A stretch of 64,000 nt of DNA, from contig DATGEL010000030.1 in the NCBI GenBank assembly GCA_035310145.1, positions 3,419 to 67,418 of the forward strand, read 5' to 3'. The notes under the pieces were generated by a model, which was not told the origin of the DNA, did not search any database, and saw nothing but the letters and a program-made list of their open reading frames with translations. The stretch comes from Dehalococcoidia bacterium. GTDB lineage: Bacteria > Chloroflexota > Dehalococcoidia > CAUJGQ01. Shown here piece after piece: positions 1 to 54,557 of the stretch. Position 1 is the stretch's first letter, and every line of letters begins with the position of its first letter. The position numbers and the translations under genes are program-made.

Positions 1-152
1 CGCCCGCGCATGTACGGATCGACGGACATGAACAGGTTTTGCACCAGCAGCTCGCCTTCGGCGGGCTGCGCCTCGGGCAGCTCGACCAGCTCGAAGTCCG
101 ACGGTTTCGGCAACCCGACCGGGCGGGCGGCCAGGCGAATCTCGCGCGGCAT
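1..152 (-). CDS. NADP-dependent oxidoreductase (zinc-binding dehydrogenase, YncB/CurA-like), N-terminal part; gene continues beyond window start
   Basis: The reverse strand translates MPREIRLAARPVGLPKPSDFELVELPEAQPAEGELLVQNLFMSVDPYMRGR, the characteristic N-terminus of this family. ATG is at 152..150 with AGGAG 7 nt upstream. Confidence 0.7.
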   Translation of the reverse strand, partial: MPREIRLAARPVGLPKPSDFELVELPEAQPAEGELLVQNLFMSVDPYMRG

Positions 153-3646: not shown

Positions 3647-3696
3647 CGCGTATCATCACGCGTATCATCACGCGTATCATCACACGCGTATCATCA
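3647..3696. repeat. tandem repeat CGCGTATCATCA x4 (12-mer; 2-nt insertion before last copy) in divergent intergenic region
   Basis: Direct reading shows copies at 3647-3658, 3659-3670, 3671-3682 and 3685-3696. The repeat lies 26 nt upstream of the ATG at 3723. Confidence 0.9.
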
Positions 3697-3722
3697 AATG
3701 AACGCGGCGGCAGGAGCGGGCG

Positions 3723-4286
3723 ATGGCAGCACAGGCACTGCGGCCCGGCGATGCGGCGCCGGATCTGGAGGTCGATCGCGCGGACGGCACGCCGCTTGCG
3801 CTCTCCGCGCTGTGGCGCGAGCGGCCGGCGCTGCTGGTCTTCCTGCGCCACTACGGCTGACCGTTCTGCCGCGAGCTGGCCGCGCAGGTGCGTGGCGAGA
3901 TCGGCGAGCGCGACGATGTCGGCGTCGCGCTGATCACGATGGGCAAGCCGGCGCAGGCCGCGGAGTTCTGCCGCGAGCAGCGGCTCTCCTACACCTGTCT
4001 CTCGGACCCGGCGCGGAACAGCTACCGCGCCTTCGGTCTGCGCCGCGGCTCGACGGCCGATGTCATGGGGCCGGGGCCGATGCTGGCCGGGCTGCGCGCG
4101 GCGAGCAAGGGGCACTTCGTCGGCCGGCCCGTGGACGACGTCTACCAGCTCGGCGGCAGCTTCCTGGTCGATACCGCGGGCCGCATCGCCTACGCGCACT
4201 ACCCGCGCCACGCGGGCGACCAACCGGCGGCGGGCGACCTGAAGCGGGCGGTCAGCCGGCTGCTCGACCGCGGCGGAGCGTCCTAA
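3723..4286 (+). CDS. peroxiredoxin-like (AhpC/TSA/redoxin, PRX_like2-type) thiol:disulfide oxidoreductase with in-frame TGA at 3858-3860 (candidate selenocysteine, U-P-F-C motif)
   Basis: ATG 3723 has AGGAG 6 nt upstream. The translation is MAAQALRPGDAAPDLEVDRADGTPLALSALWRERPALLVFLRHYG-[TGA]-PFCRELAAQVRGEIGERDDVGVALITMGKPAQAAEFCREQRLSYTCLSDP...GSFLVDTAGRIAYAHY. The TGA sits exactly where this family has the first Cys of CPxC. GC3 is high on both sides of the TGA. A stem-loop (CUGC-C-GCG [AGCUGGC] CGC-GCAG) lies 6 nt downstream of the TGA. Confidence 0.6.
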
Positions 4287-4290: not shown

Positions 4291-4887
4291 TCAGCCGCCG
4301 AAGCCCTCTTCGCTGTCGGTCAGGCCGGTGATGTCGTAGGCCATCACCAGCATGTCGCGCGTGCGGCCGCCGCGGTCCATCACGAAGTCCTGCAGCAGCG
4401 CCTCCATCTGGAAGCCGAGCTTCTCGAAAGTGGCGCGGGCGCCCTGCTGGTCCGGCGTCATGCGCGCGGTGATCTTCTGCAGGCCCAGGGCGCGGGCGAT
4501 GTCGAACACGGCCGCGGCCAGCGCCCGGCCCAGCCCCTTGCCGCGCATCGTGGCTGCGGCCTGGATGCGGATCTCGCCCAGGTGGCGCGTCCAGTTCGCC
4601 TCGTTGTAGTGCAGGCTGCCGTAACCGAGGATGCCATCGCCCTTCTGCCCCTCGGCCAGCACGGTGACCGTGTGCTTGCCGAGGTTGCTCACCCACTCGT
4701 CCACCACCGCCGGGTCGGTGATGTCGGTGCGCAAAAAGAGCAGGTCGTCGGCCGGCAGCGAACGAGCGAAGCGCAGCACCGCGTCGCGGTCGGCCTTCGT
4801 CATCAGCCGCAGCGTGATCTCGGCGCCGTCGTTGAGGCGGACGCTGCGGGGATAGGCGGCGGTGTAGGCGGGCTTCTCGGCGGTTTT
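4291..4887 (-). CDS. GNAT family N-acetyltransferase
   Basis: GTG at 4887 is preceded by AGGAGG. The GNAT acetyl-CoA binding region is RGKGLGRALAAAVFDIARALGLQKITARM. The 786-aa ORF 4291..6651 containing it is antisense to fhs and is rejected. Confidence 0.8.
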   Translation of the reverse strand, partial: KTAEKPAYTAAYPRSVRLNDGAEITLRLMTKADRDAVLRFARSLPADDLLFLRTDITDPAVVDEWVSNLGKHTVTVLAEGQKGDGILGYGSLHYNEANWTRHLGEIRIQAAATMRGKGLGRALAAAVFDIARALGLQKITARMTPDQQGARATFEKLGFQMEALLQDFVMDRGGRTRDMLVMAYDITGLTDSEEGFGG

Positions 4888-5094
4888 TTCTGCCACGGCT
4901 GAACCTCCTGCGAACGGGGCGCACCCGAGCAAGCCGCACCGTGTCGCGCGCAACGATGAAGCATCCGGCCAGACGCGCCGGCCGCTGTGCGCGCCAGTGT
5001 AGCGAGCGCATGGCGTGGGCGCCAGCCGATCGCGCATACTGCAAGCGCGCGGGCGGCTGCATGCGCGGGCCGCACCGCTGCTGGAGGTGCTGCC

Positions 5095-6837
5095 GTGCCC
5101 CCGGAGCCGGCGCAGAATGCTGCAGGCGCAACCACCACTCGCTTCCCTTCCGACCTCGAAATCGCCCAGGCCGCAAGCCTCCGACCGATCGCCGACGTGG
5201 CCGCCGATCTTGGCCTGCTGCCCGATGAGGTCGAGCTGTACGGCAAATACAAGGCCAAGATCGACCTCAGCGCCCTCGGCCGGCTGGCGAGCAAGCCGCC
5301 CGGCAAATACGTCGTAATCACCGCGATCACGCCGACGCCGCTGGGCGAGGGCAAATCCACCACCACCGTGGGGCTGGCGCAGGGGCTGGCGAAGATCGGC
5401 AAGCGCGCGATCGCCGCCATCCGCCAGCCCTCGCTGGGGCCGGTGTTCGGCATCAAGGGCGGCGCGGCCGGCGGCGGCTATGCGCAGATCGTGCCGATGG
5501 AGGACTTCAACCTGCACCTCACCGGCGACAACCACGCCGTCGGCGCGGCGCACAACCTGCTCGCCGCCTTTCTCGACAACCATCTCTACCACGGCAACGC
5601 GCTGGGCATCGACCTGAACCGCATCGAGCTGCGCCGTGTGGTGGACATCTCCGACCGCGCCCTGCGCGAGATCGTGATCGGCCTCGGCGGGCGCGAAAAC
5701 GGCGTGCCGCGCGAGGGCGGCTTCGATATCACCGTCGCCTCCGAGTGCATGGCGATCCTGGCGCTCGCCACGAGCCTGCCCGATCTGCGGGCGCGGCTCG
5801 GCCGCATGGTCGCGGCCTACACGAAGGACAATCAGCCCGTCACCGCCGAAGACCTCAAGTGCGCCGGCGCGATGACGGTGCTGATGAAGGACGCGATCAA
5901 GCCGAACCTGCTGCAAACACTCGAGGGCACGCCGGCGATGGTGCATGCCGGTCCCTTCGGCAACATCGCCCACGGCAACAGCAGCATCGTCGCCGACCAG
6001 ATCGGCCTGCGGCTCGCCGACTTCGTCGTCACCGAGGCGGGCTTCGGCGCTGACCTGGGCTTCGAAAAGTTCTGCGACATCAAGTGCCGCCAGAGCGGCC
6101 TGCGCCCGGACGCCGCCGTGCTGGTGGCGACGGTGCGGGCGCTGAAGGCGCACTCGGGCCGCTTCCGCGTGGTTGCCGGCCGGCCGCTGCCGGAGGGGCT
6201 GGTCAAAGAGGACCTGGACGCGCTGGCCGCGGGCATGGGCAACCTGGAGAAGCAGATCGAGAACGTGCGCGCCTTCGGTGTGCCGGTGGTGGTGGCGATC
6301 AACCGCTTCCCCAGCGACAGCGCGGCGGAGATGGCGGCGATCCACGACGCCGCGCTGGCCGCCGGGGCGCGCGACGCCGTGATCGCCGAGCACTTCGTGC
6401 ATGGCGGCGAAGGCGCGCGGGCGCTGGCCGAGGCGGTGGTGCAGGCCGCCGACGAGCCGTCGGAGTTCCGTTTCATCTACGACGCCGCGGCGCCGGCCGA
6501 CGAGAAGATCCGGGCGATCGCCACCGTGATCTACGGCGCCGGGGGCATTTCGCTGGCGGCCGAAGCGCGGCGCAAGCTGCGCCAGTTCGAGCGGCTTGGC
6601 TACGGGAATCTGCCGGTCTGCATGGCGAAGACACACCTCTCGCTCTCGCACGACGCGGCGCTGCTGGGCCGGCCCTCCGGCTTCACCATCCCCGTGCAGG
6701 ATGTGCGCCTCTCCGCCGGCGCCGGTTTTCTCTACGCGCTCTGCGGCGACATCCGCACGATGCCGGGTCTGCCCTCGAAACCCGGCGGCGAGGCCGTGGA
6801 CATCGACGAGCAGGGCCGGATCGTGGGGCTGTTCTGA
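5095..6837 (+). CDS. fhs: formate--tetrahydrofolate ligase
   Basis: Near full-length match: SDLEIAQ, PTPLGEGKSTTTVGLAQ, FDITVASE, MAKTHLSLS. GTG at 5095 is preceded by GGAGG with a 7-nt spacer. The protein is 580 aa. Confidence 0.9.
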   Translation: MPPEPAQNAAGATTTRFPSDLEIAQAASLRPIADVAADLGLLPDEVELYGKYKAKIDLSALGRLASKPPGKYVVITAITPTPLGEGKSTTTVGLAQGLAKIGKRAIAAIRQPSLGPVFGIKGGAAGGGYAQIVPMEDFNLHLTGDNHAVGAAHNLLAAFLDNHLYHGNALGIDLNRIELRRVVDISDRALREIVIGLGGRENGVPREGGFDITVASECMAILALATSLPDLRARLGRMVAAYTKDNQPVTAEDLKCAGAMTVLMKDAIKPNLLQTLEGTPAMVHAGPFGNIAHGNSSIVADQIGLRLADFVVTEAGFGADLGFEKFCDIKCRQSGLRPDAAVLVATVRALKAHSGRFRVVAGRPLPEGLVKEDLDALAAGMGNLEKQIENVRAFGVPVVVAINRFPSDSAAEMAAIHDAALAAGARDAVIAEHFVHGGEGARALAEAVVQAADEPSEFRFIYDAAAPADEKIRAIATVIYGAGGISLAAEARRKLRQFERLGYGNLPVCMAKTHLSLSHDAALLGRPSGFTIPVQDVRLSAGAGFLYALCGDIRTMPGLPSKPGGEAVDIDEQGRIVGLF

Positions 6838-6870: not shown

Positions 6871-7398
6871 TTACGTGGACTCCCGCTCATCGCCGTGTAC
6901 GGCGACGGTGCCGGCGCCGGCCTGCTCCAGCGCGGCCTTCGCCGTGGCCACCTCGGCGGCTTGGCCGTGCACGATCACCAGCACCTGGCCGGCGCGCAGC
7001 GCCGTCTCATAGATGCGGCGGTGGGCCGCGGGGATGCCGGCGCCGGCCAGCGCTGCGCCCACCGGTCCGAGTTCGCCGGCGATGCGCTCGCCTTCGACTT
7101 CGCCGGCCACCCAGCCGACCACCGGACCGGCCACGAAGATCGGCCCCGTGCCCGGAATGAAAAACGTGCCCGTGTCCAGCAGCAGGTTGGAGAGCGCCGT
7201 CCACAGGCCGCCGTGGCCGCCGTGGTGCCGCACCGCCCCGCCGCTGGTGTAATGACCGGACGTGGCCTCGTCGCCCGCGCCGCGGCCCGCCACGGAGACG
7301 TGCGCCATCGCCACCCCGGCCGTTGCCAGCGCCTTCACCGCGGTCTCCGCCTGCCGGTTGCTCGCGTAGATCGCCACGACCGCCTGCTCGTTTTTCAT
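6871..7398 (-). CDS. DUF1269/general-stress-protein-17M-like membrane protein (glycine-zipper)
   Basis: MKNEQAVVAIYASNRQAETAVKALATAGV is followed by a Gly-rich segment and a C-terminal repeat of the same alpha/beta module. ATG is at 7398 with GGAG upstream. Confidence 0.65.
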   Translation of the reverse strand: MKNEQAVVAIYASNRQAETAVKALATAGVAMAHVSVAGRGAGDEATSGHYTSGGAVRHHGGHGGLWTALSNLLLDTGTFFIPGTGPIFVAGPVVGWVAGEVEGERIAGELGPVGAALAGAGIPAAHRRIYETALRAGQVLVIVHGQAAEVATAKAALEQAGAGTVAVHGDEREST

Positions 7399-7640
7399 CG
7401 CCGCTCCGGCGTTCCACCGATCAGTCGCTGCTCTGTCTCTCACCGCCCCTCACGTGCAGGAACAGGGTACAGGATGGCGTCTGCATGCGGCGCTCCCGCG
7501 GCCGGCTGCCGTTCTGCCGCGGCGCACTAAAGGCCGCTGGCCGGTGGGGCGATACTTGCTTACAGAGGATGTCCGCTTGTTGGGCCGTGCCGGCGTGCAG
7601 CGCCGCGTGGCTGTTCTCGGCCCCGCCCCGGAGGCACTTC

Positions 7641-9275
7641 ATGGCCGATCTGACCGCTCCCGACCACGACCAGGCGCTGCCGGCGGTGATCGAGCCGCCG
7701 CTGGCCGGCGTCACGCGCCAGGAGCGCTTCGACCGCATCGCACGTCTCGCCTGCCGCCTGTTCGACGTGCCCATCGCCCTGCTCACCGGCGCCGACGCGG
7801 ACGGGCGCCACTACCTCGCCGCCGTCGGCCTGCTGGCGGGCGAATTGCCGCATGCGGTGGCGCTCTGCGCCGAGGCGGTGCTGGGCGAGCAGCCGCTGCT
7901 CGTGGAGGACGCGGGTCTCGACTCCCGCTTCGGCGAGGAGCCGCTCGTCTCCGGCTCGCCGTACATCCGCTCATTCGCCGCGCAGCCGCTGCTTGGTCCG
8001 GATGGTCACGGCATCGGCGTGATCTGCATTCTCGATCGGCGCCGGCGCGAGTACCAGGCGGCGGATCTCGCTGCGCTCGCCGACCTGGCGGCGCTGGCCG
8101 CGAACGAGCTCAACGTCGCCGGGCTGGAGCAGGCGCTGGCGCAGGAACGCGGCGCCATGCTGCAGGCCCGGGCGGTGCTGGGCGCCGTCTCCGAAGGGGT
8201 GCTCACCTGCGACGCCAACGGTACGATTCAGTCCTGTAATCTCGCGGGCGAGCGTATCTTCGGCTACGCCGCAACGGAATTGCTCGGCCGTGACCTCGAT
8301 TTCCTCGTGCCCGGCGTCTTCCAGCAGACGGAGAGCGCCACGGCGGCGAGCGGCACGATCAGCGAACGCGTGCTGAGCGACGGTGAACGCGAGACGGTGG
8401 GGCGCCGCCGCTCCGGCGAGCCGTTGCCGCTACTGCTGGCCGTCGGCGCTCTGCCCCAGGAGACCGGCGCCAGCCGCCTGGTGCTGGTGCGGGACCTTTC
8501 CGGCGAGCGGCGCAGCGAGCCGCGCCGGCGCAAGCTCCTGCCGACCGATCTGCGCAGCCTGCCCGATCGCGCCTTCTTCCGCAGCCGCCTGGACCAGGCG
8601 ATGGCCGCCGAGGCGCAGGGCGCCGGCGGCGTGGCGGTGCTGTTGCTGGAGCTGGACAACTGGGAGCGGGTGAACGAGCGCATGGGCGAAAGCGTGGCCG
8701 AGGCGCTGCTGCTGGAGGTGTACCGCCGGCTGCGCGCCTCCCTGCGGCCGGACGATACCGCGGCCTACATGGGCGGCAGCGGCTTCGCCGTGCTCTTCGA
8801 GAACATGAACGCCGCGCGCGATGCCCAGCGCCCGGCCGACCGCATCCTCGGCCAGTTACGCACGCCGCTGACGCACGCGCGGCGTGAGCTGATCGCCGCC
8901 CCGAACATCGGCATTGCGCTCAGCACCTTCTGCCTCGCCGCCGACCGCCAGCCGGACCTGATGTACGAAGCCGGCCAGGCGCTGCGCCAGGCGCGCGCCG
9001 CCGGCCGCTGGCGTAGCCATATCCTGGAGCCGCACGAGCACCCGCTGCTGGGCCTCGGCCTGCCGGACGACGCGCTGATCAGCGTGACGTCCGGCGACCT
9101 GCTTGCCGATCCGGCCGCATCGCAGGCGGGCGAACCGCCGGCCGAGGCCGATTCAGCCCTTGCCCTGCCGCTGACGTGCGCTGCGCCGGACGCCATGCCG
9201 CTGCCGTCCGGCGAGCAGGCCGCCCCTGACCCGGAAGACGGTGCGGGCGAGCGGCGCAGCGCCTCCGCTGCCTGA
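7641..9275 (+). CDS. GAF-PAS-GGDEF-like signalling protein with degenerate GGDEF motif (GGSGF)
   Basis: ATG 7641 lies 6 nt after GGAGG. A GAF region is followed by a PAS segment (SEGVLTCDANGTIQSCNLAGERIFGY). The GGDEF-like domain has LPDRAFFRSRL...LLLELDNWERVNERMGE...AYMGGSGFAVLFE. Confidence 0.8.
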   Translation: MADLTAPDHDQALPAVIEPPLAGVTRQERFDRIARLACRLFDVPIALLTGADADGRHYLAAVGLLAGELPHAVALCAEAVLGEQPLLVEDAGLDSRFGEEPLVSGSPYIRSFAAQPLLGPDGHGIGVICILDRRRREYQAADLAALADLAALAANELNVAGLEQALAQERGAMLQARAVLGAVSEGVLTCDANGTIQSCNLAGERIFGYAATELLGRDLDFLVPGVFQQTESATAASGTISERVLSDGERETVGRRRSGEPLPLLLAVGALPQETGASRLVLVRDLSGERRSEPRRRKLLPTDLRSLPDRAFFRSRLDQAMAAEAQGAGGVAVLLLELDNWERVNERMGESVAEALLLEVYRRLRASLRPDDTAAYMGGSGFAVLFENMNAARDAQRPADRILGQLRTPLTHARRELIAAPNIGIALSTFCLAADRQPDLMYEAGQALRQARAAGRWRSHILEPHEHPLLGLGLPDDALISVTSGDLLADPAASQAGEPPAEADSALALPLTCAAPDAMPLPSGEQAAPDPEDGAGERRSASAA

Positions 9276-9296
9276 ACGCGGACCCTGCCGCACGGT

Positions 9297-12053
9297 TTAC
9301 CGCTGGGTGACGACCAGGTTGCGGAAGCGCGCCTCGGCCGTGAGGTTGTCGCCGCCGGTGGCGATGTAGATCTTGCCCGTGCTGAAGCCGTTGTCGCGCG
9401 CCTGGCCCACCTGCGTGCCGTTGATCGTTACCGTGATCGTGTTGCCCACGCAGCTCAACGTCAGCCGGTTCACCTCGCCGTTGCGCTTGATCGCCGACGA
9501 TGGCGTATCGTCGATCAGGCGCGACGGCGTCTCCTGGCCGGGACCGTCCTTCAGCAGACGGAACGTGCCGCTGGCGGGGATGACCGAGAGGTGATAGCCG
9601 CCGGCGTCTGAGTCGCGGCAGCCGATGTTGACGTAGCGATCGGTGAACGTTCCCACCAGGCGCGCATCCACCGTGGTGCTCGTGTCCGCGTATTGGCCGG
9701 GCAGGAACTTGCCATCCAGTCCGCCGCTGGCCTGCTGCTTCTGGATCACGAACTCGCCGTTGGCGTAGCTATACTTTGTCTGGTCCGATCCGGTGGTGTC
9801 GGTGTTGAACAGGCCGGTGCCAGGGTCGCTGAGCGGATCGGCCAGCAGTACCGGGACGCTGTTGGGCGGCGTCTTCGTCACCACCAGGTTGTCGAAGTGC
9901 GTCTCGATCGTCTGCGGGTGGTCCGTGTAGGTGCTGGCGCCGATCAGGAACTGGCCAGTGCTGTACTCCGCTTTGGCGTCCTTCACCGAGGCCACGTTTG
10001 TGCCATTGATGCTGACGGCGATCGTGCTGCCGGAGCAGGTGAGCGCCACGCGGTTCGTGGCCGTGCCCTTGAGAATCGCCGGCGATGCCTGCTCGTTGCG
10101 CAGGTACCGCAGGTCGGCGTTGCTCTCCACGGCGAACAGGCGGTAGGTGCCGGCGCCGAAGTCGACCCAGACGCGGTAGCCCGTGTTGGTGTCGCCGTAG
10201 CGGCAGCCGAGCACGACGAAGCGGTTGTCGGCGCTGTCGATCATGCGCACGTCCACCGCCAGCGTCGCATCGTCGTAGCTGTTGGGGATGAACTCCTCCG
10301 GGATCGTCGAGTAGTTTGGATCGGTGAGCTTCACCACGTACTCGCCGCCTGAGTAGCCGAGCTGGTAGTGCGAATCGCCGGCGGAGTTCTCCAGAATGCC
10401 CGTCTTCGGGTCAGAGAAGCCGTCCTGGGCGAGGATCGTCGCCGGCAGCGCACCGGCGGCCGGCGGCGGCGCGACGGTCGGCGGCGCCGTGGTCGGCGCG
10501 GTTGTCGGCGGCGCCGTCGGGACGGCCGTGCGTTGCGGTGTGGTGGAGGCGGGCGCTGCGGCCGAGGCCGACGGCGCGACCGTGGGCACGGCGCTGGCCG
10601 TGCTGGTGACGGCCGGCGTCGGGTTGAGATTGCCCGGCTTCAGCGTGCCGGCGCCGCCCGAAGTCGGGGCGATGGGCACGGGCGACGGCGTCGGTTTCGG
10701 CTGCGGGCCGCCGCAGTTGGCCGCGGCCAGCGCGATCGCGCCGGCGATCGCGGCGAGCACCAGCACCGCGCCGCCGATCAGCAGCGGCGTGCGCGACTTC
10801 TTGCCCGTGCCGCCGGGCGCGGCTCCTCCACCGGCCGGCGGCGTCCACAGCGGCTGCGGCGCGGCCTGCCAGGTGCCGCCCGCCTGCTGTTGCCAGCCCG
10901 GCGGCATCGGCGGCGCCGCGGCCGGCCGCGGGGTCTGCGGCCGCGCGCCGATGCCCGGCAGCGAGACGACCGTCGGCGCTTCGTCCTCCGGCACGGGGCG
11001 CTCGCTGCCGGGCGGTGTGGCAGGCGGCGCCTGGCCCGCGCTGCCGGCCACTACCGTTGGTTCACTCGGCGTCCGCGTCGCGGGGCGCAGGTACATGCCC
11101 GAGCCTTCGATCGGGCTGCCGGCCATGCTGCCGCCGCTGGCGATGCTGCCGCGCTCGGAAGGCTGCCACGGGCGCGTCTGCGCCAGCGCCTCCGGGATGC
11201 CGCGGCCGCTGCTTTCGGTCGCGGCCTGTGCCAGCGCCTGGACGAACGCGCCGCACGTGGCGAAACGCTCGTCCGGCTCGCGCGCGAGCGCCTGCTCCAC
11301 CACGGCCGCCAGCGCGGCGCCGAGCTGCGGATTGCGGCTCTGCAGCGAGGGCGGCGATTCGTACAGGTGCTTGGCCATCACCGCTTCCGGCGTGGCCGCG
11401 GCGAAGGGCACGCTGCCGGTCAGCATCTCGTAGGCGACGATGCCCAGCGCATATTCGTCGGCCCGCCCGTCCAGCGGCTCGCCGCGGATCTGTTCCGGCG
11501 CCATGTAGGCCGGTGTGCCCAGCCCGGTGCCGATCTGGGTCAGCGGCTCGCCCGTGCGGCTCTCGTTCGTCTCCGTCTCCAGGATGCGGGCGAGGCCGAA
11601 GTCGGCCACAATCGGCGTCTCGTCCTCGGTGAGCAGGATGTTGCTGGGCTTGATGTCGCGGTGAATCACGCCGCGGGCGTGGGCGAAATCGAGCGCCGCG
11701 GCAACCGGCGCGAGCAGGCGCGCGACGCTGGCCGGGGGCAGCGGCTGGCCCAGGCGGTGCCAGAGCGTGCCGCCGGGGATGTAGCGGTAGACGATGTAGG
11801 CCTGGCCGTCCGCTTCGCCGTAGTCGAACACGGGCAGGATGTTGGGGTGTTCGAGGCGGGCCAGCACCTCCGCCTCGCGGCGGAAGCGGGCGAGAAAGGC
11901 GGGCTGGCCGGCGAGCTGGGCGCCGATGACTTTGACCGCCACGTCGCGGCGCAGGCTGGGCTGAAAGGCGCGGTAGACGCTCGCCATGCCGCCTTCGCCC
12001 AGCGGCTCGCGCACCACGTACTGCCCGAACGTCGTCCCGGCCGGCAGGGTCAC
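9297..12053 (-). CDS. serine/threonine protein kinase (Hanks-type) with TM segment and two tandem C-terminal concanavalin-like (DUF1080-type) extracellular domains
   Basis: GTG 12053 has GAGGGA upstream. Kinase motifs are GEGGMASVYRA, HRDIKPSNILL, DFGLA and APE. A Pro-rich linker and a TM helix (LLIGGAVLVLAAIAGAIALAAA) follow. The ~190-aa module occurs twice, ending in ...HFDNLVVTK and ...ARFRNLVVTQR. Confidence 0.9.
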   Translation of the reverse strand: MTLPAGTTFGQYVVREPLGEGGMASVYRAFQPSLRRDVAVKVIGAQLAGQPAFLARFRREAEVLARLEHPNILPVFDYGEADGQAYIVYRYIPGGTLWHRLGQPLPPASVARLLAPVAAALDFAHARGVIHRDIKPSNILLTEDETPIVADFGLARILETETNESRTGEPLTQIGTGLGTPAYMAPEQIRGEPLDGRADEYALGIVAYEMLTGSVPFAAATPEAVMAKHLYESPPSLQSRNPQLGAALAAVVEQALAREPDERFATCGAFVQALAQAATESSGRGIPEALAQTRPWQPSERGSIASGGSMAGSPIEGSGMYLRPATRTPSEPTVVAGSAGQAPPATPPGSERPVPEDEAPTVVSLPGIGARPQTPRPAAAPPMPPGWQQQAGGTWQAAPQPLWTPPAGGGAAPGGTGKKSRTPLLIGGAVLVLAAIAGAIALAAANCGGPQPKPTPSPVPIAPTSGGAGTLKPGNLNPTPAVTSTASAVPTVAPSASAAAPASTTPQRTAVPTAPPTTAPTTAPPTVAPPPAAGALPATILAQDGFSDPKTGILENSAGDSHYQLGYSGGEYVVKLTDPNYSTIPEEFIPNSYDDATLAVDVRMIDSADNRFVVLGCRYGDTNTGYRVWVDFGAGTYRLFAVESNADLRYLRNEQASPAILKGTATNRVALTCSGSTIAVSINGTNVASVKDAKAEYSTGQFLIGASTYTDHPQTIETHFDNLVVTKTPPNSVPVLLADPLSDPGTGLFNTDTTGSDQTKYSYANGEFVIQKQQASGGLDGKFLPGQYADTSTTVDARLVGTFTDRYVNIGCRDSDAGGYHLSVIPASGTFRLLKDGPGQETPSRLIDDTPSSAIKRNGEVNRLTLSCVGNTITVTINGTQVGQARDNGFSTGKIYIATGGDNLTAEARFRNLVVTQR

Positions 12054-12229
12054 CGGAATCCCTCGTGCGTGCGGCTGAAGGCGTGCTGCAAGTAAACAGC
12101 AACATCATACACGCCGCCGCGCCGCCTGGATCGCCGCCGTTGTCTTCACCAACAGGAAACAGGGAGCGAGGAACGAGGAGCGAGGAAAGAGGAAAGAGAG
12201 CACAGGGGTTAGGGATGGGAGCCTAACCT

Positions 12230-12925: not shown

Positions 12926-12958
12926 CCTGACGCCAGTTCCTGACGCCAGTTCCTGACG
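12926..12958. repeat. tandem repeat CCTGACGCCAGTT x2.5 (13-mer) upstream of ACAD gene
   Basis: Direct reading shows copies at 12926-12938 and 12939-12951, with a partial copy 12952-12958. The repeat ends 14 nt before the ATG at 12973. Confidence 0.85.
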
Positions 12959-12972
12959 AAGGTGGCCGGAGC

Positions 12973-14148
12973 ATGGACTTCCGCTTCTCCGCGGCCGAAG
13001 AGGCGTTTCGCGCCGAGCTGCTCGGCTTTCTGCGCGAGGTCGCGCCGCCCGGCTGGGAGCGGCGCTTCGCCGGCGATGCGGCCGCGCTCTGGGGCTTCGA
13101 GCGCGAGTTTCAGCGCAAGCTGGCCGAGCGGCGCTGGCTGGCGCTGCCCTGGCCGCACGAGCTGGGCGGTTTCGGCGCCAGCTATATGCAGCAACTGATC
13201 TTCAACGAGACGATGGCCTACAACCGCGCGCCCTCGTTCGTGAACATGGGCGTCGCCTGGGTCGGGCCCTCGATCATGACCTACGGCACGGACGAGCAGA
13301 AGCGCCGCTACGTGCGCCGCATCGCCGAGGGCGAGGATATCTGGTGCACGCTCTACTCCGAGCCGGGCGCCGGCTCCGACCTCGCCAGCCTGCAAACCCG
13401 CGCCGAACGTGACGGCGACGAGTACGTGATCAACGGCCAGAAGATCTGGACGACCTACGCACACCTCTCCGATTACGGCTGGCTCGCCGCCCGCACCGAC
13501 CCCGCCGCGCCCAAGCATAAGGGCATCAGCACCTTCGTCGTGCCCATGAAAGCGCCGGGTGTGCAGGTGCGGCCGCTGGTGAACATGGCGGACGGGCACG
13601 AGTTCAACGAGGTCTTTTTCGAGAACGTGCGCGTGCCGAAGGAGAACCTGGTCGGCGAGGAGAACCGCGGCTGGTACCAGGTCGCCACCGGCCTCGACAT
13701 CGAGCGCACGGCGATCGGCAGCCCGGCCACGGCGCGCCGCACGCTGGAAGACCTGGTGCAGTTCTGCAAGACGGCGCGGAGAGGCGGCCGGGCGCTGATC
13801 GACGATCCGATCGCGCGGCACACGCTGGCCGACCTCGCGGTCAGCATCGACATGGCGAAGATGCTGTCGTACCGCATTGCCTCGATGCAGACGGCGGGCC
13901 GGGCGCCGGGCTATGAGGCATCGAGCGCCAAGATGTTCGGCACGGAGCTGAACCAGCGGCTGGCGAACGCGGCAGTGGGCCTCCTCGGCCTCGCCGGCCA
14001 GCTCGACGGCGTCGACGCCCGCGCCCCGCTGCACGGCCGGCTCAAGTATCTCTACCTGCGCATGGTGGCGAACACGATCGAGGGCGGCACCAGCGAGATC
14101 CAGCGCACCGTGATCGCCACCCGCGGCCTCGGTCTGCCGCGGGGCTGA
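12973..14148 (+). CDS. acyl-CoA dehydrogenase
   Basis: Full-length ACAD: YSEPGAGSDLASLQTRAERDGDEYVINGQKIWTT, and the C-terminus EGGTSEIQRTVIATRGLGLPRG. SD GAAGGTGG is upstream of the ATG. Confidence 0.9.
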   Translation: MDFRFSAAEEAFRAELLGFLREVAPPGWERRFAGDAAALWGFEREFQRKLAERRWLALPWPHELGGFGASYMQQLIFNETMAYNRAPSFVNMGVAWVGPSIMTYGTDEQKRRYVRRIAEGEDIWCTLYSEPGAGSDLASLQTRAERDGDEYVINGQKIWTTYAHLSDYGWLAARTDPAAPKHKGISTFVVPMKAPGVQVRPLVNMADGHEFNEVFFENVRVPKENLVGEENRGWYQVATGLDIERTAIGSPATARRTLEDLVQFCKTARRGGRALIDDPIARHTLADLAVSIDMAKMLSYRIASMQTAGRAPGYEASSAKMFGTELNQRLANAAVGLLGLAGQLDGVDARAPLHGRLKYLYLRMVANTIEGGTSEIQRTVIATRGLGLPRG

Positions 14149-14412
14149 GGGGCGCGCGGGAAGCTCATCGAGTCCGCGGAGTGGAGTCCCAAATGTTCTC
14201 ATTTACGGGACATTCCTGAATCATGCAAAGTTTGGTGCAGATTATTTCCGCTTATGAATCATTCTTAGGCAAGCCAAGGTTATGAACGCGGCGCAGCTCG
14301 TTCGCAGACAGCAAGAGTGTCGTGGTGCCCCGTCGCATCCGTGGAGTGGCTGCCATCGACGATGCCGACCGGTGGGATAGACTGCGGCTGAGCGCGTGGA
14401 CAGGAGCGGACC

Positions 14413-16051
14413 ATGACTACGGCCGACTGGATCGCCCACGGCCGGTCATCCTTCAGCCAGCGCGCGTGGGCAGCGGCGTTCACTCAGCTCTCCACCGCGG
14501 ACCGCGAGGCGTCGCTGGAGCCCAGCGACGTGGAGCGGCTCGCGGTGGCCGCCTACCTCATTGGCAATGATGATGCCTGCGCCGACGCGTGGGGCCGCGC
14601 CCATCACGCATGGCTGTGCCTGGGCGATGTGGCGCGCGCCGTCCGGTGTGCGTACTGGCTTGCTGTCGGGCACTTCAATCGGGGCGAACTCGCCCGTGGC
14701 AGCGGCTGGCTCACCCGCGCCCAGCGGCTGCTGGACGAGGACGGGCACGACTGTGTCGAGCAGGGGTATTTGCTGCTACCGGTAGCGCGACAGCAACTGG
14801 CGGTTGGCGACTATGCGGCCGCGTACACGACGGCCGGTCAGGCCGCCACGATCGCTGAGCGCTTCGGCGATGCTGATCTCCTCACGCTCAGTCGACTCGC
14901 GCGGCCGCACGCTCCTATCCCTCGGCGAGATCGCGGCGGGCGTCGCATTGCTGGATGAGGCGATGGTCGCCGTGTTGGCTGGGGAGGTTTCGCCCATCCC
15001 TGCCGGCATTGTCTACTGCAGTGTCATCGACGCCTGCCAGGGGCTATGCGACCTACGCCGGGCCCAGGAGTGGACGGAGGCGCTCAAGCAGTGGTGTGCC
15101 TCGCAGCCGGAGCTGGTGCCATTCCGCGGCGAGTGCCTCGTATATCGCGCCGAAATCATGCAACTGCATGGCGCGTGGACGGCCGCCGTTGACGAAGCAC
15201 AACGGGCATGCGACTGGCTCGCCCAGCCGCCCGGCCAGCCGGCGCGCGGGTCGGCATTTTACCTCCAAGGCGAACTGCACCGCCTGCGTGGTGAGTTCGG
15301 CCGAGCTGAGGCAGCGTATCGGCAGGCCAGTCAGTTCGGCCGGGAACCCCAGCCCGGCCTGGCGCTCCTGCGGCTCTCCCAGGGGCAGCGAGAGGCGGCA
15401 GCCGCGGCCATTCGTCGCGTGGTGGCTGAGGCGCAGGACCGCGTGAGCCGGGCCAAGGTGCTTGCCGCGCACGTCGAGGTTATGCTCGCGGTGGGCGATG
15501 TCCCAGCGGCAGGCGCTGCGGCGGATGAGTTGGCAGACATCGCGGCCGAGCTGGACGCCGTTCTCCTGCAGGCATACGCCGCGCACGCGCAGGGGGCGGT
15601 CCTCCTCACCCGGGGCGATGCCGACGCCGCCGTGCCGGCCCTGCGGCGGGCTTGGGCGGCGTGGCAGGAGGTAGCGGTGCCGTACGAGGCAGCGCGCGTC
15701 CGCATCCTGCTGGCACTGGCCTATCAAGTCCTGGCAGACCATGATACCGCGGCGATGGAGCTGGACGCGGCGCGCTGGGTATTCCGTCAGCTCGGCGCCA
15801 TTCCCGATCTCCTGCGCTTGGAGGTGCTCACGCACTCGCCTCGGGCGAAGGCAGCGGGAGGGCTCACCACGCGGGAACTGGAAGTGCTCCGCCTGGTGGC
15901 TGCGGGGAAGAGCAACCGCGCGATCGCCACTGGCCTCGTCCTCAGCGAGAAGACCGTGGATCGCCATGTGAGCAATATTCTTACCAAGCTGGGTGTCGCC
16001 TCGCGTGCCGCGGCCACCGCCTACGCGTACGAGCATGACCTGCTCACGTGA
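14413..16051 (+). pseudogene. LuxR-family transcriptional regulator (TPR-like N-terminal region + C-terminal LuxR HTH) interrupted by a -1 frameshift near 14895-14910
   Basis: Frame 1 ORF 14413..14958 (start ATG after AGGAG) and frame 2 ORF 14804..16051 together give one protein, ...[12 protein letters not shown]|[24 protein letters not shown].... The junction lies in the run GCGCGGCCGC. The C-terminus [42 protein letters not shown] is a LuxR HTH. Confidence 0.7.
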
Positions 16052-16211
16052 CCCTCCAGAGAACTACCCACGGCACGCAGCCGTAGTGATTTGGGTAGTT
16101 CTCCCGACGATGGCCTGCCTGCCTGCGGCTACGATCGGGCTCAACAGCGCTGGTCGGGCGACCGGTCACCGGTCCAGACGCTGGCAGCCAACTAAGCGAA
16201 GGAGTGACCAG

Positions 16212-16532
16212 ATGACTATGGCAGCCGGCATCGTCGAGTACAGCATCAGCCCGGAGCACGCCGAAACCCTCCGCGATCGCGTGCAGACCTACCTCCTGCC
16301 CGCGGCGCGCGCGGCGCAGGGCTATCGTGGCTTCCTCGTCGTGGACTGCGGGGCGGGCAAGCGCATCGGCATTGTGCTGTTCGACTCGGCAGCGAACGCG
16401 CAGACCGCGCAGGGGACACTTGGCCCGCTGGGCATGAAGCATACCGGTGCCCTGATGCAGGGGGCGATTGAGCGCTCCGTGGGCACGGTCGTCATCAATG
16501 ACGGGCTGTTCGCCGACGCCGTCGTGCGCTAG
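16212..16532 (+). CDS. antibiotic-biosynthesis-monooxygenase (ABM)/Dabb-like small protein
   Basis: AAGGAG lies 7 nt upstream of ATG 16212. The 106-aa protein MTMAAGIVEYSISPEHAETLRDRVQTYLL...GIVLFDSAANAQ has a ferredoxin-like ABM-fold signature. It is immediately downstream of the LuxR pseudogene. Confidence 0.65.
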   Translation: MTMAAGIVEYSISPEHAETLRDRVQTYLLPAARAAQGYRGFLVVDCGAGKRIGIVLFDSAANAQTAQGTLGPLGMKHTGALMQGAIERSVGTVVINDGLFADAVVR

Positions 16533-16629
16533 CGTCAGCCATCACGACCTGCGCCTAATCGGGGACAGCGGAGCGATGCGGCGAGCCGATGCCTCCTCCA
16601 CAACGACGCAGCACGCCCCGACGCACACC

Positions 16630-16657
16630 AACCGGGCGGCGATAGCGCCGCCCGGTT
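16630..16657 (+). terminator. perfect 12-bp stem/4-nt loop hairpin (AACCGGGCGGCG-ATAG-CGCCGCCCGGTT), putative intrinsic terminator after the ABM gene
   Basis: The inverted repeat is read directly. It is followed by CTGTTCCTCC, with no strong U-tract. It sits ~100 nt downstream of the stop at 16532 in a 430-bp intergenic region. Confidence 0.45.
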
Positions 16658-16962
16658 CTGTTCCTCCGCGAGGTCGTCTGCTGGGCTATGCCACAGACGG
16701 CCGCTTTGCAGATGCTGATCGGTCGCCGCACACCGCTTGCCGAGCCGTGGTCGCTCGACCGCGTCAAAACCTGAGTCTGAATCAACGTCTCATGATCGGC
16801 CCTGCCCAACGGACATTGTCCTGATCGAACTGATCGCTCGCGTCGGGCAGGGCGAGATCGGCGCGCGGCCTCGGCCTTCCCGCGGCAAGGGTGTAGGGTA
16901 AGGCGTGTAACGGCACCCGGAACGCCGCGCGCCGGCGAAACGACCGCGAACAGAGGAGAGGC

Positions 16963-18126
16963 ATGGCACGCTTCAGCCTGCACACGAAGATCTGCGACCT
17001 CCTCGGCATCGAATATCCGGTGATCCTCGCCGGCATGGGGCCGACGGCGGGGCGAGCCGGTGGCGCCGCGGCCACGGCGCCGCTCGTGGCGGCCGTCTCC
17101 AACGCCGGCGGCCTCGGCGTGCTGGGCGGCGCCGGCTCCACGCCCGAGCAGTTGCGCGAGGAGATCCGCAAGGTCCGCGGTCTCACGAGCAAGCCGTTCG
17201 GCGTCGATCTGCTGCTGCCCTCCAACGTCGTGCGCCAGCCGGGCGGCAGCAACGGCGGCGCTACGGACTGGCGGGCACAGATCCCGCATCCCTACTGGGA
17301 GGCGATCGCCGGGCTGAAGGCGCAGTTCGGTATTCCCGACGTACAGCGCGAAGGTTCAGCGCCGGGGGTGGGCGCCTGGCGCATCGAGGACCAGGTGCAG
17401 GTGCTGTTCGACGAGCGGGTGCCCGTCTTCGCCTCCGGCCTGGGCAACCCCGCGCCCTACGTGCCGCGCTGCCGCGAACTGGGGATCAAGGTCACCGCCC
17501 TCGTCGGCAATGTGAAGAACGCGCGGCGCGTGGCCGACGCCGGCGTCGACATCGTCGTGGCGCAGGGGCACGAGGCCGGCGGCCATACGGGACGCATCGG
17601 CACACTGGCGCTGGTGCCGCAGGTGGTCGACGCGGTTGCGCCGGTGCCGGTGGTGGCCGCGGGCGGCATCGGCGACGGGCGCGGGCTGGCGGCGGCGCTC
17701 GCGCTCGGCGCGCACGGCGTCTGGTGCGGCACGGCGTTCCTGGCGACGGAAGAGGCGAATATTGCGTCGCTGCAGAAGCAGAAGATCGTGGAGGCGAACG
17801 AAGAGGACACGCGCGTGACGCGGCTCTACAGCGGCAAGACGATGCGGAACATCACCAACCCGCTGATCGAGGCGTGGGACGCACTCAATATCAAGGCGCT
17901 GCCGATGGGTCTGCAAGGGTTGCTGATCGCGGATCTGCTCGCCGGCATCCGTGCCTCCGACAAAGAAGAGCTGCTGATGAACGCCGCCGGCCAGATCTCC
18001 GGCCTGATCGGCGGCCTGCGCCCCGCGCGAGCCGTGCTCGACGAGATCGTGGACGGCGCCGCCGAGATCCTGACGCGCGAGCTGCCCGCGCGGGCGCAGG
18101 TCGCGGAAGGAAGCACGGTACGCTGA
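16963..18126 (+). CDS. nitronate monooxygenase (NMO/2-nitropropane dioxygenase family, FMN-dependent)
   Basis: Family signatures are VILAGMGP, GGLGVLG and GVDIVVAQGHEAGGHTG. AGAGGAGAGG lies upstream of the ATG. Confidence 0.9.
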   Translation: MARFSLHTKICDLLGIEYPVILAGMGPTAGRAGGAAATAPLVAAVSNAGGLGVLGGAGSTPEQLREEIRKVRGLTSKPFGVDLLLPSNVVRQPGGSNGGATDWRAQIPHPYWEAIAGLKAQFGIPDVQREGSAPGVGAWRIEDQVQVLFDERVPVFASGLGNPAPYVPRCRELGIKVTALVGNVKNARRVADAGVDIVVAQGHEAGGHTGRIGTLALVPQVVDAVAPVPVVAAGGIGDGRGLAAALALGAHGVWCGTAFLATEEANIASLQKQKIVEANEEDTRVTRLYSGKTMRNITNPLIEAWDALNIKALPMGLQGLLIADLLAGIRASDKEELLMNAAGQISGLIGGLRPARAVLDEIVDGAAEILTRELPARAQVAEGSTVR

Positions 18127-18290
18127 ACTGTGCCGGCGAGCGAAGAGCGCAACGATGGAGGGATGAGTTCGAGCGTCGTGTGGCGAGCGGGACACCGAAC
18201 CCCGACGCGGGTAGACGTAAGAGCTGGGCGCCCCAGCAGCCCGACTCGATCATGCGAGCGGAGCACGCCGCCAGGAGGAGCGCCCCACCA

Positions 18291-19598
18291 ATGGTCTCAC
18301 CATCATCGGCCGCCATTGAAAGCAATGCCCGTCCCGGCCCACTGACCGGCGTGCGCGTGCTCGATTTGGGCGATCCGCTCACGATCTACGCCGGCAAGCT
18401 GCTCGCCGACCTCGGCGCCGATGTGATCCTGGTCGAGCCGCCCGGCGGCGTGCCCGCCCGCAACCTGCCGCCCTTCTTCCACGAGCAGTCCGGCCCCGCG
18501 ACCTCGCTCACCTTCTGGTTCTTCAACACCTCCAAACGCTCCGTCACCTGCGACCTGCATACGGCCGACGGGCGTGCCCTCTTCGCACGGCTCGTGCCCA
18601 CGGCGCAGATCGTGCTCGAAGGCGGGCCGCCGGGCGGGCTGGACGAGCTGGGCATTGGCTTCCAGCGCTTCCACGCCGAGCTGCCGGCGCTGATCTGGGC
18701 CGGCATCAGCGGCTTCGGCAGCACAGGGCCGCGCGCCGGCTGGCTGGCCGACGACCTGGTCGGCATCGCCATGTCCGGCATCCTCACGCTCTCCGGCTAC
18801 CCCGATCGGCCGCCCGTGCAACTGCCGGGCAACCAGGGCTGGTACGCCGCCGGCATCCAGGCGGCGCAGGGGCTGCTGCTAGCGCTGCGCGTGGCCGAGC
18901 AGCACGGCGCCGGCCAGTTCGTCGACGTCTCGATGCAGGAGGCGCTCTCGCTGGCGCAGGAGACGGCGATGCAGACCTGGGATATGCGCCGCGAGGTACG
19001 CAAGCGCCAGGGCGAGGCGCGGCTGATGCCCGGCGTCGGTACCTACGAGTGCGCCGACGGCCATCTCTACTCGATGGTCGGCATCCCCGGCTTCGGCGCC
19101 AACTGGCAGGTGCTCGCCGGTTGGATGGCCGAGCAAGGCATGGCCGAAGACCTGGGCAACGAGCACTGGCAGAACATCTTGAACAGCATGAATATCCGCG
19201 AACTGACGCAGCTCTGGTCCAACCCCGAGAAGTTGGCCGACCTGCAGGCGCAGTACGCGCACGTCAACGACGTGTTGGAGCGCTTCTACAAACGGTTCAG
19301 TAAGCAGTATCTCTATGAAGAAGGCCAGCGTCGCCGCCTGCTGATCGGCCCAGCCAACACCGCACGGGATCTGCTCAACGACGCGCAACTCGCGGCGCGC
19401 GGCTGGTTCCAGCAGGTCGAGCACCCGGAGCTGCAGCAGACGGTGACCTACCCTGGTCCCCCCTACCGGCTAGCCAGATCGCCCTGGCAGATCGCCCGCC
19501 GCCCGCCGCTCCCCGGCGAGCACAACATTGAGGTCTTCGGCACGCTGGGCCTCAGCCCGGCCGACCTCGCCACGCTAACCGCCGCCCACGCAATCTAA
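18291..19598 (+). CDS. CoA transferase family III (CaiB/BaiF) protein
   Basis: PLTGVRVLDLGD...AGK..ADLGADVI. ATG 18291; alternative ATG 18252 in frame, start uncertain. Confidence 0.85.
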   Translation: MVSPSSAAIESNARPGPLTGVRVLDLGDPLTIYAGKLLADLGADVILVEPPGGVPARNLPPFFHEQSGPATSLTFWFFNTSKRSVTCDLHTADGRALFARLVPTAQIVLEGGPPGGLDELGIGFQRFHAELPALIWAGISGFGSTGPRAGWLADDLVGIAMSGILTLSGYPDRPPVQLPGNQGWYAAGIQAAQGLLLALRVAEQHGAGQFVDVSMQEALSLAQETAMQTWDMRREVRKRQGEARLMPGVGTYECADGHLYSMVGIPGFGANWQVLAGWMAEQGMAEDLGNEHWQNILNSMNIRELTQLWSNPEKLADLQAQYAHVNDVLERFYKRFSKQYLYEEGQRRRLLIGPANTARDLLNDAQLAARGWFQQVEHPELQQTVTYPGPPYRLARSPWQIARRPPLPGEHNIEVFGTLGLSPADLATLTAAHAI

Positions 19599-19615
19599 AC
19601 CCATTCCGCAGCCTC

Positions 19616-19642
19616 CCCCTCTCCATGAAATGGAGAGGGGGC
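19616..19642. repeat. palindromic element A: CCCCCTCTCCAT-GAA-ATGGAGAGGGGG, member of dispersed CTCTCC/GGAGAG repeat family
   Basis: 12-bp perfect stem between two CoA-transferase genes. Followed by GGCCGGGGGGTGAGGCCACG-ATG (start of the next gene), nearly identical to the sequence before the ATG at 56255. Confidence 0.7.
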
Positions 19643-19659
19643 CGGGGGGTGAGGCCACG

Positions 19660-26833: not shown

Positions 26834-26969
26834 TGTTTGCCCCTTTGCGTGGTGGCCCCTGTGCCGATGCGGCCAGGCGGGCCACACAGGTGGCCGCGCC
26901 AAGGCCGGCGCCTGCGCTTCTCAGCCCGACCGGAACGCCGTGCCGAGGCGGCTGGCCGAACTCGCTGCC

Positions 26970-32125: not shown

Positions 32126-32323
32126 GAATGGGCGGCACGCGAATAGTCCAGGCTACAGTATACGCTCCCCCTCACCGGCATCATGCGCGGGCATGTGCCG
32201 GTTCACGCGCCGCCCCAAAAGTCGGTCCCACCGCATAAAGGTGCGAGGTCTGCTCGGTTGAAACACCCTGTGGCGATACCTAGATCGTGCTCGAAAGGCC
32301 GGCTGGCCGTGCTCGCGCTCTGC

Positions 32324-33511: not shown

Positions 33512-33658
33512 CGTCACGCTCCTCCGTTGCCGGCCGCTGAACGGTCCGGATCGTACGCGCGGGCGCCGAATGACGTTCGATCGCCGCGCCACGTCCGATC
33601 ATGGCGCGGCGAGACGAATTTCGCAAGAGGGAAGCGCGCGGCGAAAGCTTCGGAGAGC

Positions 33659-34243
33659 TTAGCCCAGGCCGGCCGCGCTCAGCTTCGCGTCCTGTGCCTG
33701 CGCGATCGCGGCGAGCTGGGCCGGGTCCGGCTGCTGCAGGCCGCCGTCGAGCACCAGCGCGATCACGCGGCCACGCACGAAGATATCGGCCACGAAGTGC
33801 AGCGTCGGGCCGTCCTTCGGGTCCGGCAGGTCAAACGCCACCTGCTGGTCGGCGGCGCCGAGGCCGAGCGGCGCCAGCACCCGGAAGTTCTGCACGTTCA
33901 CGCCGCCGCCCGCCAGCGCCTGCACGAAGGCCGGCCCGCCGAACAGCGGCACGATCACGCCGGCCGGCAGGGCCTGGTCGGTCTCGATCAGGCCGTCGAT
34001 CACGGCGCCGCCGCTCGCGTCCGTGCTCACGAACGTGCGCACGAACATGGCCGAGATGCCGGGCACGCCGCTGGCCGGCGTGGTCTCCTGCGCCTGCGTG
34101 AAGCCCGGCAGCTCGGACGCGCTGAGCGCCACGGCGGCCAGATCGCCGGCCGCGGCGCTCTGCGCCCGCACCGGACCGGCGGCGCTGAGCGCTCCGCCCA
34201 GCACGAGCGCGACGACCAGGGCAGGCAGCAGGCGGCGGAACAT
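33659..34243 (-). CDS. secreted hypothetical protein (signal peptide, ~194 aa)
   Basis: Only the 3' 585 nt of the 812-aa shadow ORF is credible. ATG 34243 has GAGGT upstream. The signal is MFRRLLPALVVALVLGGALSAAGPVRAQS. Confidence 0.6.
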   Translation of the reverse strand: MFRRLLPALVVALVLGGALSAAGPVRAQSAAAGDLAAVALSASELPGFTQAQETTPASGVPGISAMFVRTFVSTDASGGAVIDGLIETDQALPAGVIVPLFGGPAFVQALAGGGVNVQNFRVLAPLGLGAADQQVAFDLPDPKDGPTLHFVADIFVRGRVIALVLDGGLQQPDPAQLAAIAQAQDAKLSAAGLG

Positions 34244-34423
34244 CGCTTCTACCTCGTATGGCTCAGGGCAACGTGCGGCGGCCGCTTCCGACAACGGCCC
34301 CATAGGAAGTGTCGGCAGCCGCCGCGGATCGCCTATAGGTGCGGCGCCGCATTCCTGGCGGCGTGGCGCGATCCCGCTGCCTGGAGCGGCCGCCGCGCTT
34401 GACCGCCGCTCCCGCCCGCTCCC

Positions 34424-53378: not shown

Positions 53379-54557
<1,179 letters not shown>

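Follow-up and report, generated by a model that had tools for sequence, protein, structure and literature searches.

Bacterial selenoproteins in which selenocysteine (Sec, U) opens a UxxC redox motif of peroxiredoxin-like (Prx-like) proteins are established families, listed as 'Prx-like thiol:disulfide oxidoreductase' in Table 1 of PMC1794560 and as Prx-like 1-3 in Table 2 of PMC2398784. On the animal side, selenoprotein L (SelL), a eukaryotic Prx-like selenoprotein of aquatic animals, is mentioned in PMC2398784, and the CxxC of PRXL2B is a catalytic centre that reduces a peroxide bond, with Cys44 facing the substrate peroxide (PMC12938796). The selenoprotein trait is well documented in the class Dehalococcoidia: Chloroflexi include selenoprotein users (PMC1794560), and individual Dehalococcoidia metagenome-assembled genomes (MAGs) hold 46-49 selenoprotein genes (PMC13326102). 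Here we describe an open reading frame (ORF) at positions 3723-4286 of a 64,000-nucleotide stretch from a Dehalococcoidia bacterium (contig DATGEL010000030.1; the whole stretch is called the window below) that is interrupted by an in-frame TGA at the first position of a U-P-F-C motif. Judging from the sequence and from that of its relatives, it very probably represents a genuine selenoprotein gene belonging to this known bacterial class.

An earlier note on this DNA, made from the letters of the stretch, had proposed an ORF with a good Shine-Dalgarno sequence, an in-frame TGA at the redox-active CxxC position of AhpC/TSA (PRX_like2) proteins, and a high GC content at third codon positions (GC3) on both sides of it, and had assigned the product to the UxxC Prx-like class. 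Direct reading, translation and Pfam and NCBIfam matches bear all of this out, and the class is the documented one cited above. The product begins with MAAQALRPGD and runs through ALLVFLRHYG to the TGA at 3858-3860, after which it continues with PFCRELAAQV while the same frame remains open for 141 codons up to the TAA at 4284-4286. GC3 is 0.90 over the 40 codons upstream of the TGA and 0.95 over the 40 codons downstream. No other disabling mutation is present in the ORF, and the N-terminal start position is kept in three of the homologous loci from other assemblies (L001, L006, L007). In the whole 64-kb window, this TGA alone combines coding-like flanks on both sides with a redox-motif context; the remaining three TGAs with coding-like composition on both sides are ordinary gene ends.

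For all protein family searches, Cys was written at the TGA codon of the 187-residue product. The product scores 143.2 bits with the NCBIfam model NF040769 (SelL-related redox protein, SelL_rel_redox), whose curated cutoff is 120 (E = 6e-42), the match spanning residues 11-174 of 187 and model positions 2-170 of 173. Pfam gathering thresholds are likewise exceeded for AhpC-TSA (54.5 bits versus 26), for PF13911 AhpC-TSA_2, the PRXL2 group (50.8 bits versus 27), and for Redoxin (43.2 bits). As judged from these matches, the product belongs to the AhpC/TSA, PRX-like2 (PRXL2), SelL-related group. The closest solved structure by sequence is that of PRXL2B, the prostamide/prostaglandin F synthase of humans (9us9, E = 2e-9 in a distant HMMER alignment), in which LRHYG-U46-PF-C49-R lies on LRRFG-C44-VV-C47-R, placing U46 at Cys44 and C49 at Cys47. 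In alignments to 5epf (FYPAAMTPGC) and 2cx3 (FFPAAFSPVC), C49 takes the place of the peroxidatic Cys, U46 that of Thr/Ser and R42 that of Pro. Since the Pro and the Thr/Ser of the PxxxT/SxxC signature are thus replaced, the active site would be a CxxC-type (selenol-thiol) centre and not the Prx triad. Identity as a canonical peroxiredoxin (Prx/BCP) was considered and rejected, as Cys49 alone of this signature is retained, although the Pfam AhpC-TSA match is present.

TGA stands at the identical codon in 20 of 20 Sec-type loci from other assemblies, which share 35-100% protein identity with the window product (L001, L002, L005-L011, L013, L015, L016, L027, L034 and L038-L043). These loci come from independent samples and assemblers (NCBI, JGI, ENA, Logan); L038-L043 were fetched by protein identity, and L038 is the same strain as the window from another sample. 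Both L001 (uncultured Chloroflexi, 85% identity) and L002 (Chloroflexota, 64%) read FLRHYG-TGA-PFCRELAAQ, and homologues from Chloroflexia and Thermomicrobiales read FLRHYGCPFC, that is, Cys at this codon. Among 33 metagenome loci, TGA was found in L005-L011, L013, L015, L016, L027 and L034, some of them merely 35-45% identical to the query, while the rest of those covering the codon have TGC or TGT. In all, 20 distinct Cys-type homologues carry TGC/TGT at the equivalent position, and full-length Cys homologues are collinear across the TGA junction. Such pairing of Sec with Cys at one codon, a mark by which bacterial selenoprotein genes are recognized, is therefore found at this locus. The earlier note had named Cys in the orthologues of close relatives, together with other disabling mutations at this locus, as a sign of a recent nonsense pseudogene or a sequencing error; all 20 Sec-type loci have TGA instead. 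In a neighbour-joining tree of 33 homologues, Sec forms occupy one half, within which two small groups of Cys forms are nested, and the other half is all Cys; on these alignments, the layout is the usual pattern of Sec/Cys exchange. The distant Sec-type homologue L027 (892-954) reads U-I-F-A (FLRHFG-TGA-IFARQQ), without the resolving Cys, and has its hairpin nearer to the UGA (nucleotides 14-30, loop GGC); within the family it possibly represents a one-Sec variant whose selenocysteine insertion sequence (SECIS) has another register.

Upstream and downstream of the TGA alike, the ORF evolves under purifying selection in one frame. Compared with five relatives, the ratio of nonsynonymous to synonymous differences (pN/pS) is 0.16-0.64 over the 40 codons upstream of the TGA and 0.29-0.51 over the 125 codons downstream, which is the coding conservation on both sides of the codon looked for in a selenoprotein gene. 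Elsewhere in the window TGA is the commonest stop, terminating 24 of 48 crude gene calls, and in-frame TGA occurs in no other window gene; a reassigned genetic code was rejected on these grounds.

Public annotation has not followed the gene across the TGA. In NCBI, JGI, ENA and Logan-derived collections it is recorded as a 132-residue fragment without active site (P0001), and gene callers likewise split the L038 homologue (7030-7593) into 45 and 132 residues and the L042 homologue (5660-6211) into 47 and 109. A protein search returned this C-terminal fragment itself and 24 clusters at 59-83% identity. All 24 of these nearest clusters are 108-138 residues long and start just 3' of the TGA codon, and full-length matches (~190 residues) first appear at ~40% identity. 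Because the UGA is conserved, close homologues that all begin just 3' of it are a gene-caller signature, and the same truncation defect is seen in at least 24 related protein clusters (P0002-P0025), whose starts lie at V, M or L near residue 56 or later. The right product is probably the 187-residue selenoprotein rather than the 132-residue fragment.

Within the coding sequence, 3' of the UGA, lies a hairpin that we consider a putative SECIS. Its core helix pairs 3879-3885 with 3890-3896, nucleotides 22-39 counted from the U of the UGA, so that the helix starts 18 nucleotides past the last UGA base and the AGGU loop 25 nucleotides past it. The stem-loop announced in the earlier note is present, but not 6 nucleotides after the UGA as stated there, since the conserved 7-bp helix starts 18 nucleotides after. 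The register of nucleotides 22-39 is common to L001, L006, L007, L009, L010, L013 and L042 (Table 1), and L002 and L008 keep 5 bp of the core helix. In nearly all Sec loci the apical loop has a G within its first two bases, then a U. The bacterial SECIS consensus puts the loop 16-37 nucleotides from the UGA, with G as one of the first two loop bases; the hairpin at 3879-3896 fits this geometry of a stem-loop shortly 3' of the UGA with G or GU in the apical loop. The minimum-free-energy (MFE) fold of the window sequence is a longer hairpin that begins at the UGA (-40 kcal/mol). Its long lower stem was considered as part of the conserved element and dropped, having support neither from the consensus fold nor from covariation across relatives.

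The core hairpin is specific to Sec-type loci. In 13 of these, the strongest hairpin close to the UGA reaches a median energy of -11.5 kcal/mol and mostly has 7-8 bp at nucleotides 22-39 with loops AGGU, AGUU or GUU, whereas the best hairpins in the equivalent stretch of 20 Cys loci reach a median of -4.3 kcal/mol and are 4-bp stems that fall at varying places; no hairpin comparable to the Sec-type core was found in these 20 Cys-type homologues. The median MFE over 48 nucleotides is -21.7 kcal/mol for Sec versus -13.8 kcal/mol for Cys loci (Mann-Whitney p = 0.0015; p = 0.02 after removing close relatives). RNAalifold independently predicts the helix 22-28/33-39, and its consensus retains solely this helix and a small local 4-bp helix. 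In an ungapped alignment, six of the seven core pairs show compensatory changes, giving a covariation score of 0.442 against a shuffled mean of 0.257, a value reached by 1 of 500 shuffles and by none of the slid registers, all of which score lower. One compensatory change, in L013, alters the protein from AAQVRG (GCC...GGC) to LAQVRQ (CUG...CAG), and compensatory changes that alter the protein point to selection on the RNA itself. The reading of 3879-3896 as a putative bacterial SECIS, Sec-locus-specific and covarying, is thus supported from the sequence comparison, in line with the possible bacterial SECIS of the earlier note.

Several observations weigh against a selenoprotein at this locus, or at least against its SECIS. 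In a genome of 70% GC, the single-sequence fold is modest against shuffled sequences (z = -2.05 over 71 nucleotides, z = -1.35 over 48 nucleotides); it is the comparative evidence, not the single-sequence fold, that carries the SECIS argument. Three distant Sec loci (L011, L027, L034) have a comparable hairpin with its register shifted by a few nucleotides. The hairpin also overlaps conserved codons, so that its conservation comes partly from the protein, though the control with Cys-type loci and those compensatory changes that alter the protein speak against coding constraint as the whole explanation. A search with Rfam at gathering thresholds over the window gave no SECIS family, and at 3780-3980 there was none even at E <= 10, where the permissive scan returned only chance-level matches to unrelated families. 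Bacterial SECIS elements are, however, too diverse for one model (PMC12013277), and for that reason no Rfam match is expected.

The remaining counterpoint is the Sec machinery, as neither tRNA-Sec nor selA, selB or selD was found within the 64-kb window. ARAGORN and Rfam (at gathering) give no tRNA and no RNA family there, and Pfam annotation of the 30 larger window ORFs gives no SelA, SelB or SelD domain. Regular-expression signatures of SelA, SelB and SelD are absent from ~290 kb (window plus related loci) and ARAGORN finds no tRNA in 15 related loci, two results that are uninformative on the whole genome. No conserved operon and no nearby sel genes were found around the homologues compared (L038, L039-L041 and L042). 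Sec decoding capacity of the window's MAG was, in short, not seen in the window and the related loci. The gene implies Sec use by this high-GC Dehalococcoidia/Chloroflexota MAG and predicts that selA, selB, selD and tRNA-Sec are encoded elsewhere in its genome.

There are other possible explanations for the TGA. It could be a true stop, the functional product being a 132-residue protein from GTG 3888, a truncated AhpC-TSA_2 without the active-site motif, with or without a separate 45-residue peptide. Gene callers and NCBI annotate the window gene and its L038 and L042 homologues in this way, and the missing Sec machinery in the window would agree with it, yet such a fragment would be missing the opening beta strands of the thioredoxin fold together with its entire UxxC centre. 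The in-frame purifying selection on the 40 codons upstream of the TGA, and the collinearity of full-length Cys homologues across the junction, also speak against it. The start position and codon of such fragments are not constant among relatives, falling on V, M or L where residue 56 lies or further on, and by eye no sequence like a Shine-Dalgarno site is seen upstream of GTG 3888. We regard this explanation as highly unlikely. A recent nonsense mutation, or an assembly or sequencing error at a TGC or TGT, would need a single base change, and errors do occur in MAG assemblies. That the same TGA recurs in a further 20 loci, drawn from separate samples and assemblers, in an ORF free of other disabling mutations and selected on both halves, together with a co-conserved, covarying hairpin limited to TGA-bearing loci, effectively refutes it; the divergence of these loci excludes that they are copies of a single contaminated sequence. 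The conserved TGA, the purifying selection and the standard use of stops together leave no room for a sequencing error, a pseudogene of recent origin or a reassigned code, and they make the annotated 132-residue product without active site implausible.

Recoding without selenium is a further alternative. The UGA might be read through by near-cognate insertion of Trp or Cys, or TGA might be reassigned across the lineage; the hairpin would then do no more than stimulate read-through. The comparisons establish a translated UGA and a selected RNA hairpin but not the identity of the inserted amino acid, and the Sec machinery of this MAG is a prediction. Against this, TGA serves as the commonest ordinary stop of the window and interrupts no other gene there, so the code is not reassigned; the UGA is aligned specifically to a redox-active Cys, the hallmark of Sec; the position and the GU-containing loop of the hairpin match the bacterial SECIS pattern; and Sec use is documented for the family as well as for the phylum. 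Recoding of this kind appears extremely unlikely, and a selenoprotein gene at 3723-4286 is the reading we favour.

Under that selenoprotein reading, the gene would encode a single thioredoxin-fold redox protein of 187 residues, in which UGA codon 46 is decoded as Sec to complete the U-P-F-C active site. From its anatomy, the mRNA hairpin at 3879-3896, within the coding sequence, would serve as the bacterial SECIS: SelB, with GTP and Sec-tRNA(Sec), would bind it and place Sec in the A site of the ribosome, competing there with release factor 2. By homology, the selenolate of Sec46, standing where PRXL2B has the first Cys of its CxxC, may attack an oxidized substrate (a peroxide, an endoperoxide or a disulfide), Cys49 may resolve the intermediate to give an intramolecular selenenylsulfide, and a thioredoxin-type reductant may recycle the enzyme. 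A bolder, joint proposal would go further on three points. The Chloroflexota branch could reduce organic or lipid (endo)peroxides in a selenium-dependent way, with a mechanism parallel to that of animal PRXL2B; the family-specific SECIS could sit so deep in the coding sequence as to dictate the residues of helix alpha1, with AAQ[V/L]RG changing to LAQVRQ where the stem changes; and expression in the window lineage could have been retuned by a four-fold amplified -10-like element that is single-copy in relatives. That all of these hold together seems unlikely.

Table 1. Coordinates of the selenoprotein gene, its hairpin in the window and in related loci, and adjacent features
Feature	Position	Strand	Remarks
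Full selenoprotein coding sequence	3723..4286	+	187 codons + TAA, Sec = codon 46 (predicted); SelL-related / PRXL2-type thioredoxin-fold redox protein
Shine-Dalgarno AGGAG	3712..3716	+	6-nucleotide spacer to ATG 3723; direct sequence reading
In-frame TGA, read as Sec codon U46	3858..3860	+	First residue of U-P-F-C redox motif
TGC = Cys49, partner (resolving) Cys of UxxC	3867..3869	+	Aligns with peroxidatic Cys of Prx/BCP (5epf, 2cx3) and with Cys47 of 9us9
Conserved core of bacterial SECIS-like hairpin	3879..3896	+	GCCGCGC / AGGU / GCGUGGC, 7 bp, -12.3 kcal/mol
Extended minimum-free-energy hairpin of window sequence	3856..3923	+	Lower-stem extensions around core; lower stem lineage-specific
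L009 hairpin	nt 22-39		GUCGCGC-AGUU-GCGCGGC
L010 hairpin	register of nt 22-39		CUUCGCGC-GUU-GCGCGAGG
L013 hairpin	nt 22-39		CUGGCGC-AGGU-GCGCCAG
L042 hairpin	nt 22-39		GCCGCGC-AGUU-GCGCGGC
Publicly annotated 132-residue fragment 'peroxiredoxin-like family protein' (P0001)	3888..4286	+	Starts at GTG inside the SECIS loop
Four tandem copies of 12-mer CGCGTATCATCA	3647..3696	+	Tandem Repeats Finder (TRF); intergenic, ends 26 nucleotides before ATG
Convergent GNAT acetyltransferase, just 3' of the selenoprotein gene	4291-4896	-	Correspondence with L038 7598-8203
Formate-tetrahydrofolate ligase (FTHFS)	4960-6837	+	856 bits

Upstream of the gene, the 12-mer tandem repeat described in the earlier note was recovered at the same distance from the ORF. 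It sits between a divergently transcribed His_Phos_1 gene and the selenoprotein gene, and its unit contains the -10-like hexamer TATCAT. L038 has the identical four copies; in L001, L006 and L007 the element occurs once (GCGTATCAT / GCGTATGAT), ~30 nucleotides upstream of the ATG. From these comparisons the unit looks like a -10 hexamer amplified in the window lineage only, and it may have a promoter or regulatory role. As the neighbourhood is not conserved in relatives, we draw no functional link between the redoxin and the GNAT or FTHFS genes next to it (Table 1). In L042, ~2.8 kb downstream of the Sec-type homologue, 9008-11014 encodes a 668-residue product with MauE, Thioredoxin and several AhpC-TSA/Redoxin matches that looks like a membrane-anchored multi-redoxin fusion.

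Elsewhere in the window, genes of fatty-acid or CoA-ester metabolism are dense at 12931-20919, 32324-35710, 44037-45173 and 53379-57400; they encode four acyl-CoA dehydrogenases and two family III CoA-transferases, along with one each of an enoyl-CoA hydratase, a thiolase-like protein and a nitronate monooxygenase. Between them lie LuxR-family (GerE) regulators, one being a 998-residue AAA_16-TPR-GerE protein (29156-32152). An ORF at 25286-26920 (-) combines DUF6851 with VCPO_2nd, the second helical-bundle domain of vanadium chloroperoxidase, and is possibly a vanadium haloperoxidase or acid-phosphatase-like enzyme. The window also encodes, at 9297-12104 (-) and 36848-40129 (-), two Ser/Thr protein kinases of very large size (~935 and 1093 residues), the former with C-terminal Laminin_G_3 and 3-keto-disaccharide hydrolase-like domains.

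The practical value of this locus lies in the repair of a systematic mis-annotation and in a predicted Sec trait for the MAG. In addition, Sec-type homologues with the hairpin and Cys-type homologues without it make a matched set that could serve to train or benchmark predictors of bacterial SECIS elements and selenoproteins. No new biological question is opened, UxxC Prx-like selenoproteins having been known since 2005-2008, and the protein is already covered by a curated NCBIfam model. A literature search under the name 'SelL-related' found no paper.

Compared with described systems, the hairpin resembles SECIS elements of the E. coli fdhF type in being an in-ORF hairpin directly 3' of the UGA, with G and U in an apical loop ~25 nucleotides downstream. 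It differs from them in having no primary-sequence similarity, no identified bulged U and no Rfam model match, and its SelB site is putative. With canonical Prx and BCP-PrxQ proteins (5epf, 2cx3), the product shares the Pfam AhpC-TSA domain and, in Cys49, the peroxidatic Cys, but it has Arg42 for Pro and Sec46 for Thr/Ser. PRXL2B (9us9/9usa) is alike in its thioredoxin-like fold and in the Arg four residues ahead of the first Cys, retained here as R42; unlike the window protein, PRXL2B uses Cys in place of Sec and comes from animals, where it acts on a prostaglandin, a substrate not expected in bacteria. SelL belongs to the same superfamily and has its redox motif at the equivalent position of the fold. 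It carries UxxU, two Sec residues that form a diselenide, and a eukaryotic SECIS in the 3' untranslated region (3'-UTR), whereas the window protein has U-P-F-C with a single Sec and an in-frame hairpin of bacterial type. Identity with eukaryotic SelL was therefore rejected, neither UxxU nor a 3'-UTR SECIS being found.

The window protein's own family is NCBIfam NF040769, from which we found no difference. The Prx-like families of Zhang and Gladyshev share with it an AhpC/TSA (pfam00578) or Redoxin (pfam08534) domain, Sec as the first residue of UxxC, many Cys homologues and a SECIS inside the coding sequence just 3' of the UGA. This likeness is drawn from the published descriptions of these families taken together. 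Those families come mainly from Deltaproteobacteria, Clostridia and marine metagenomes, whereas the nearest organism-named loci here are Chloroflexota MAGs.

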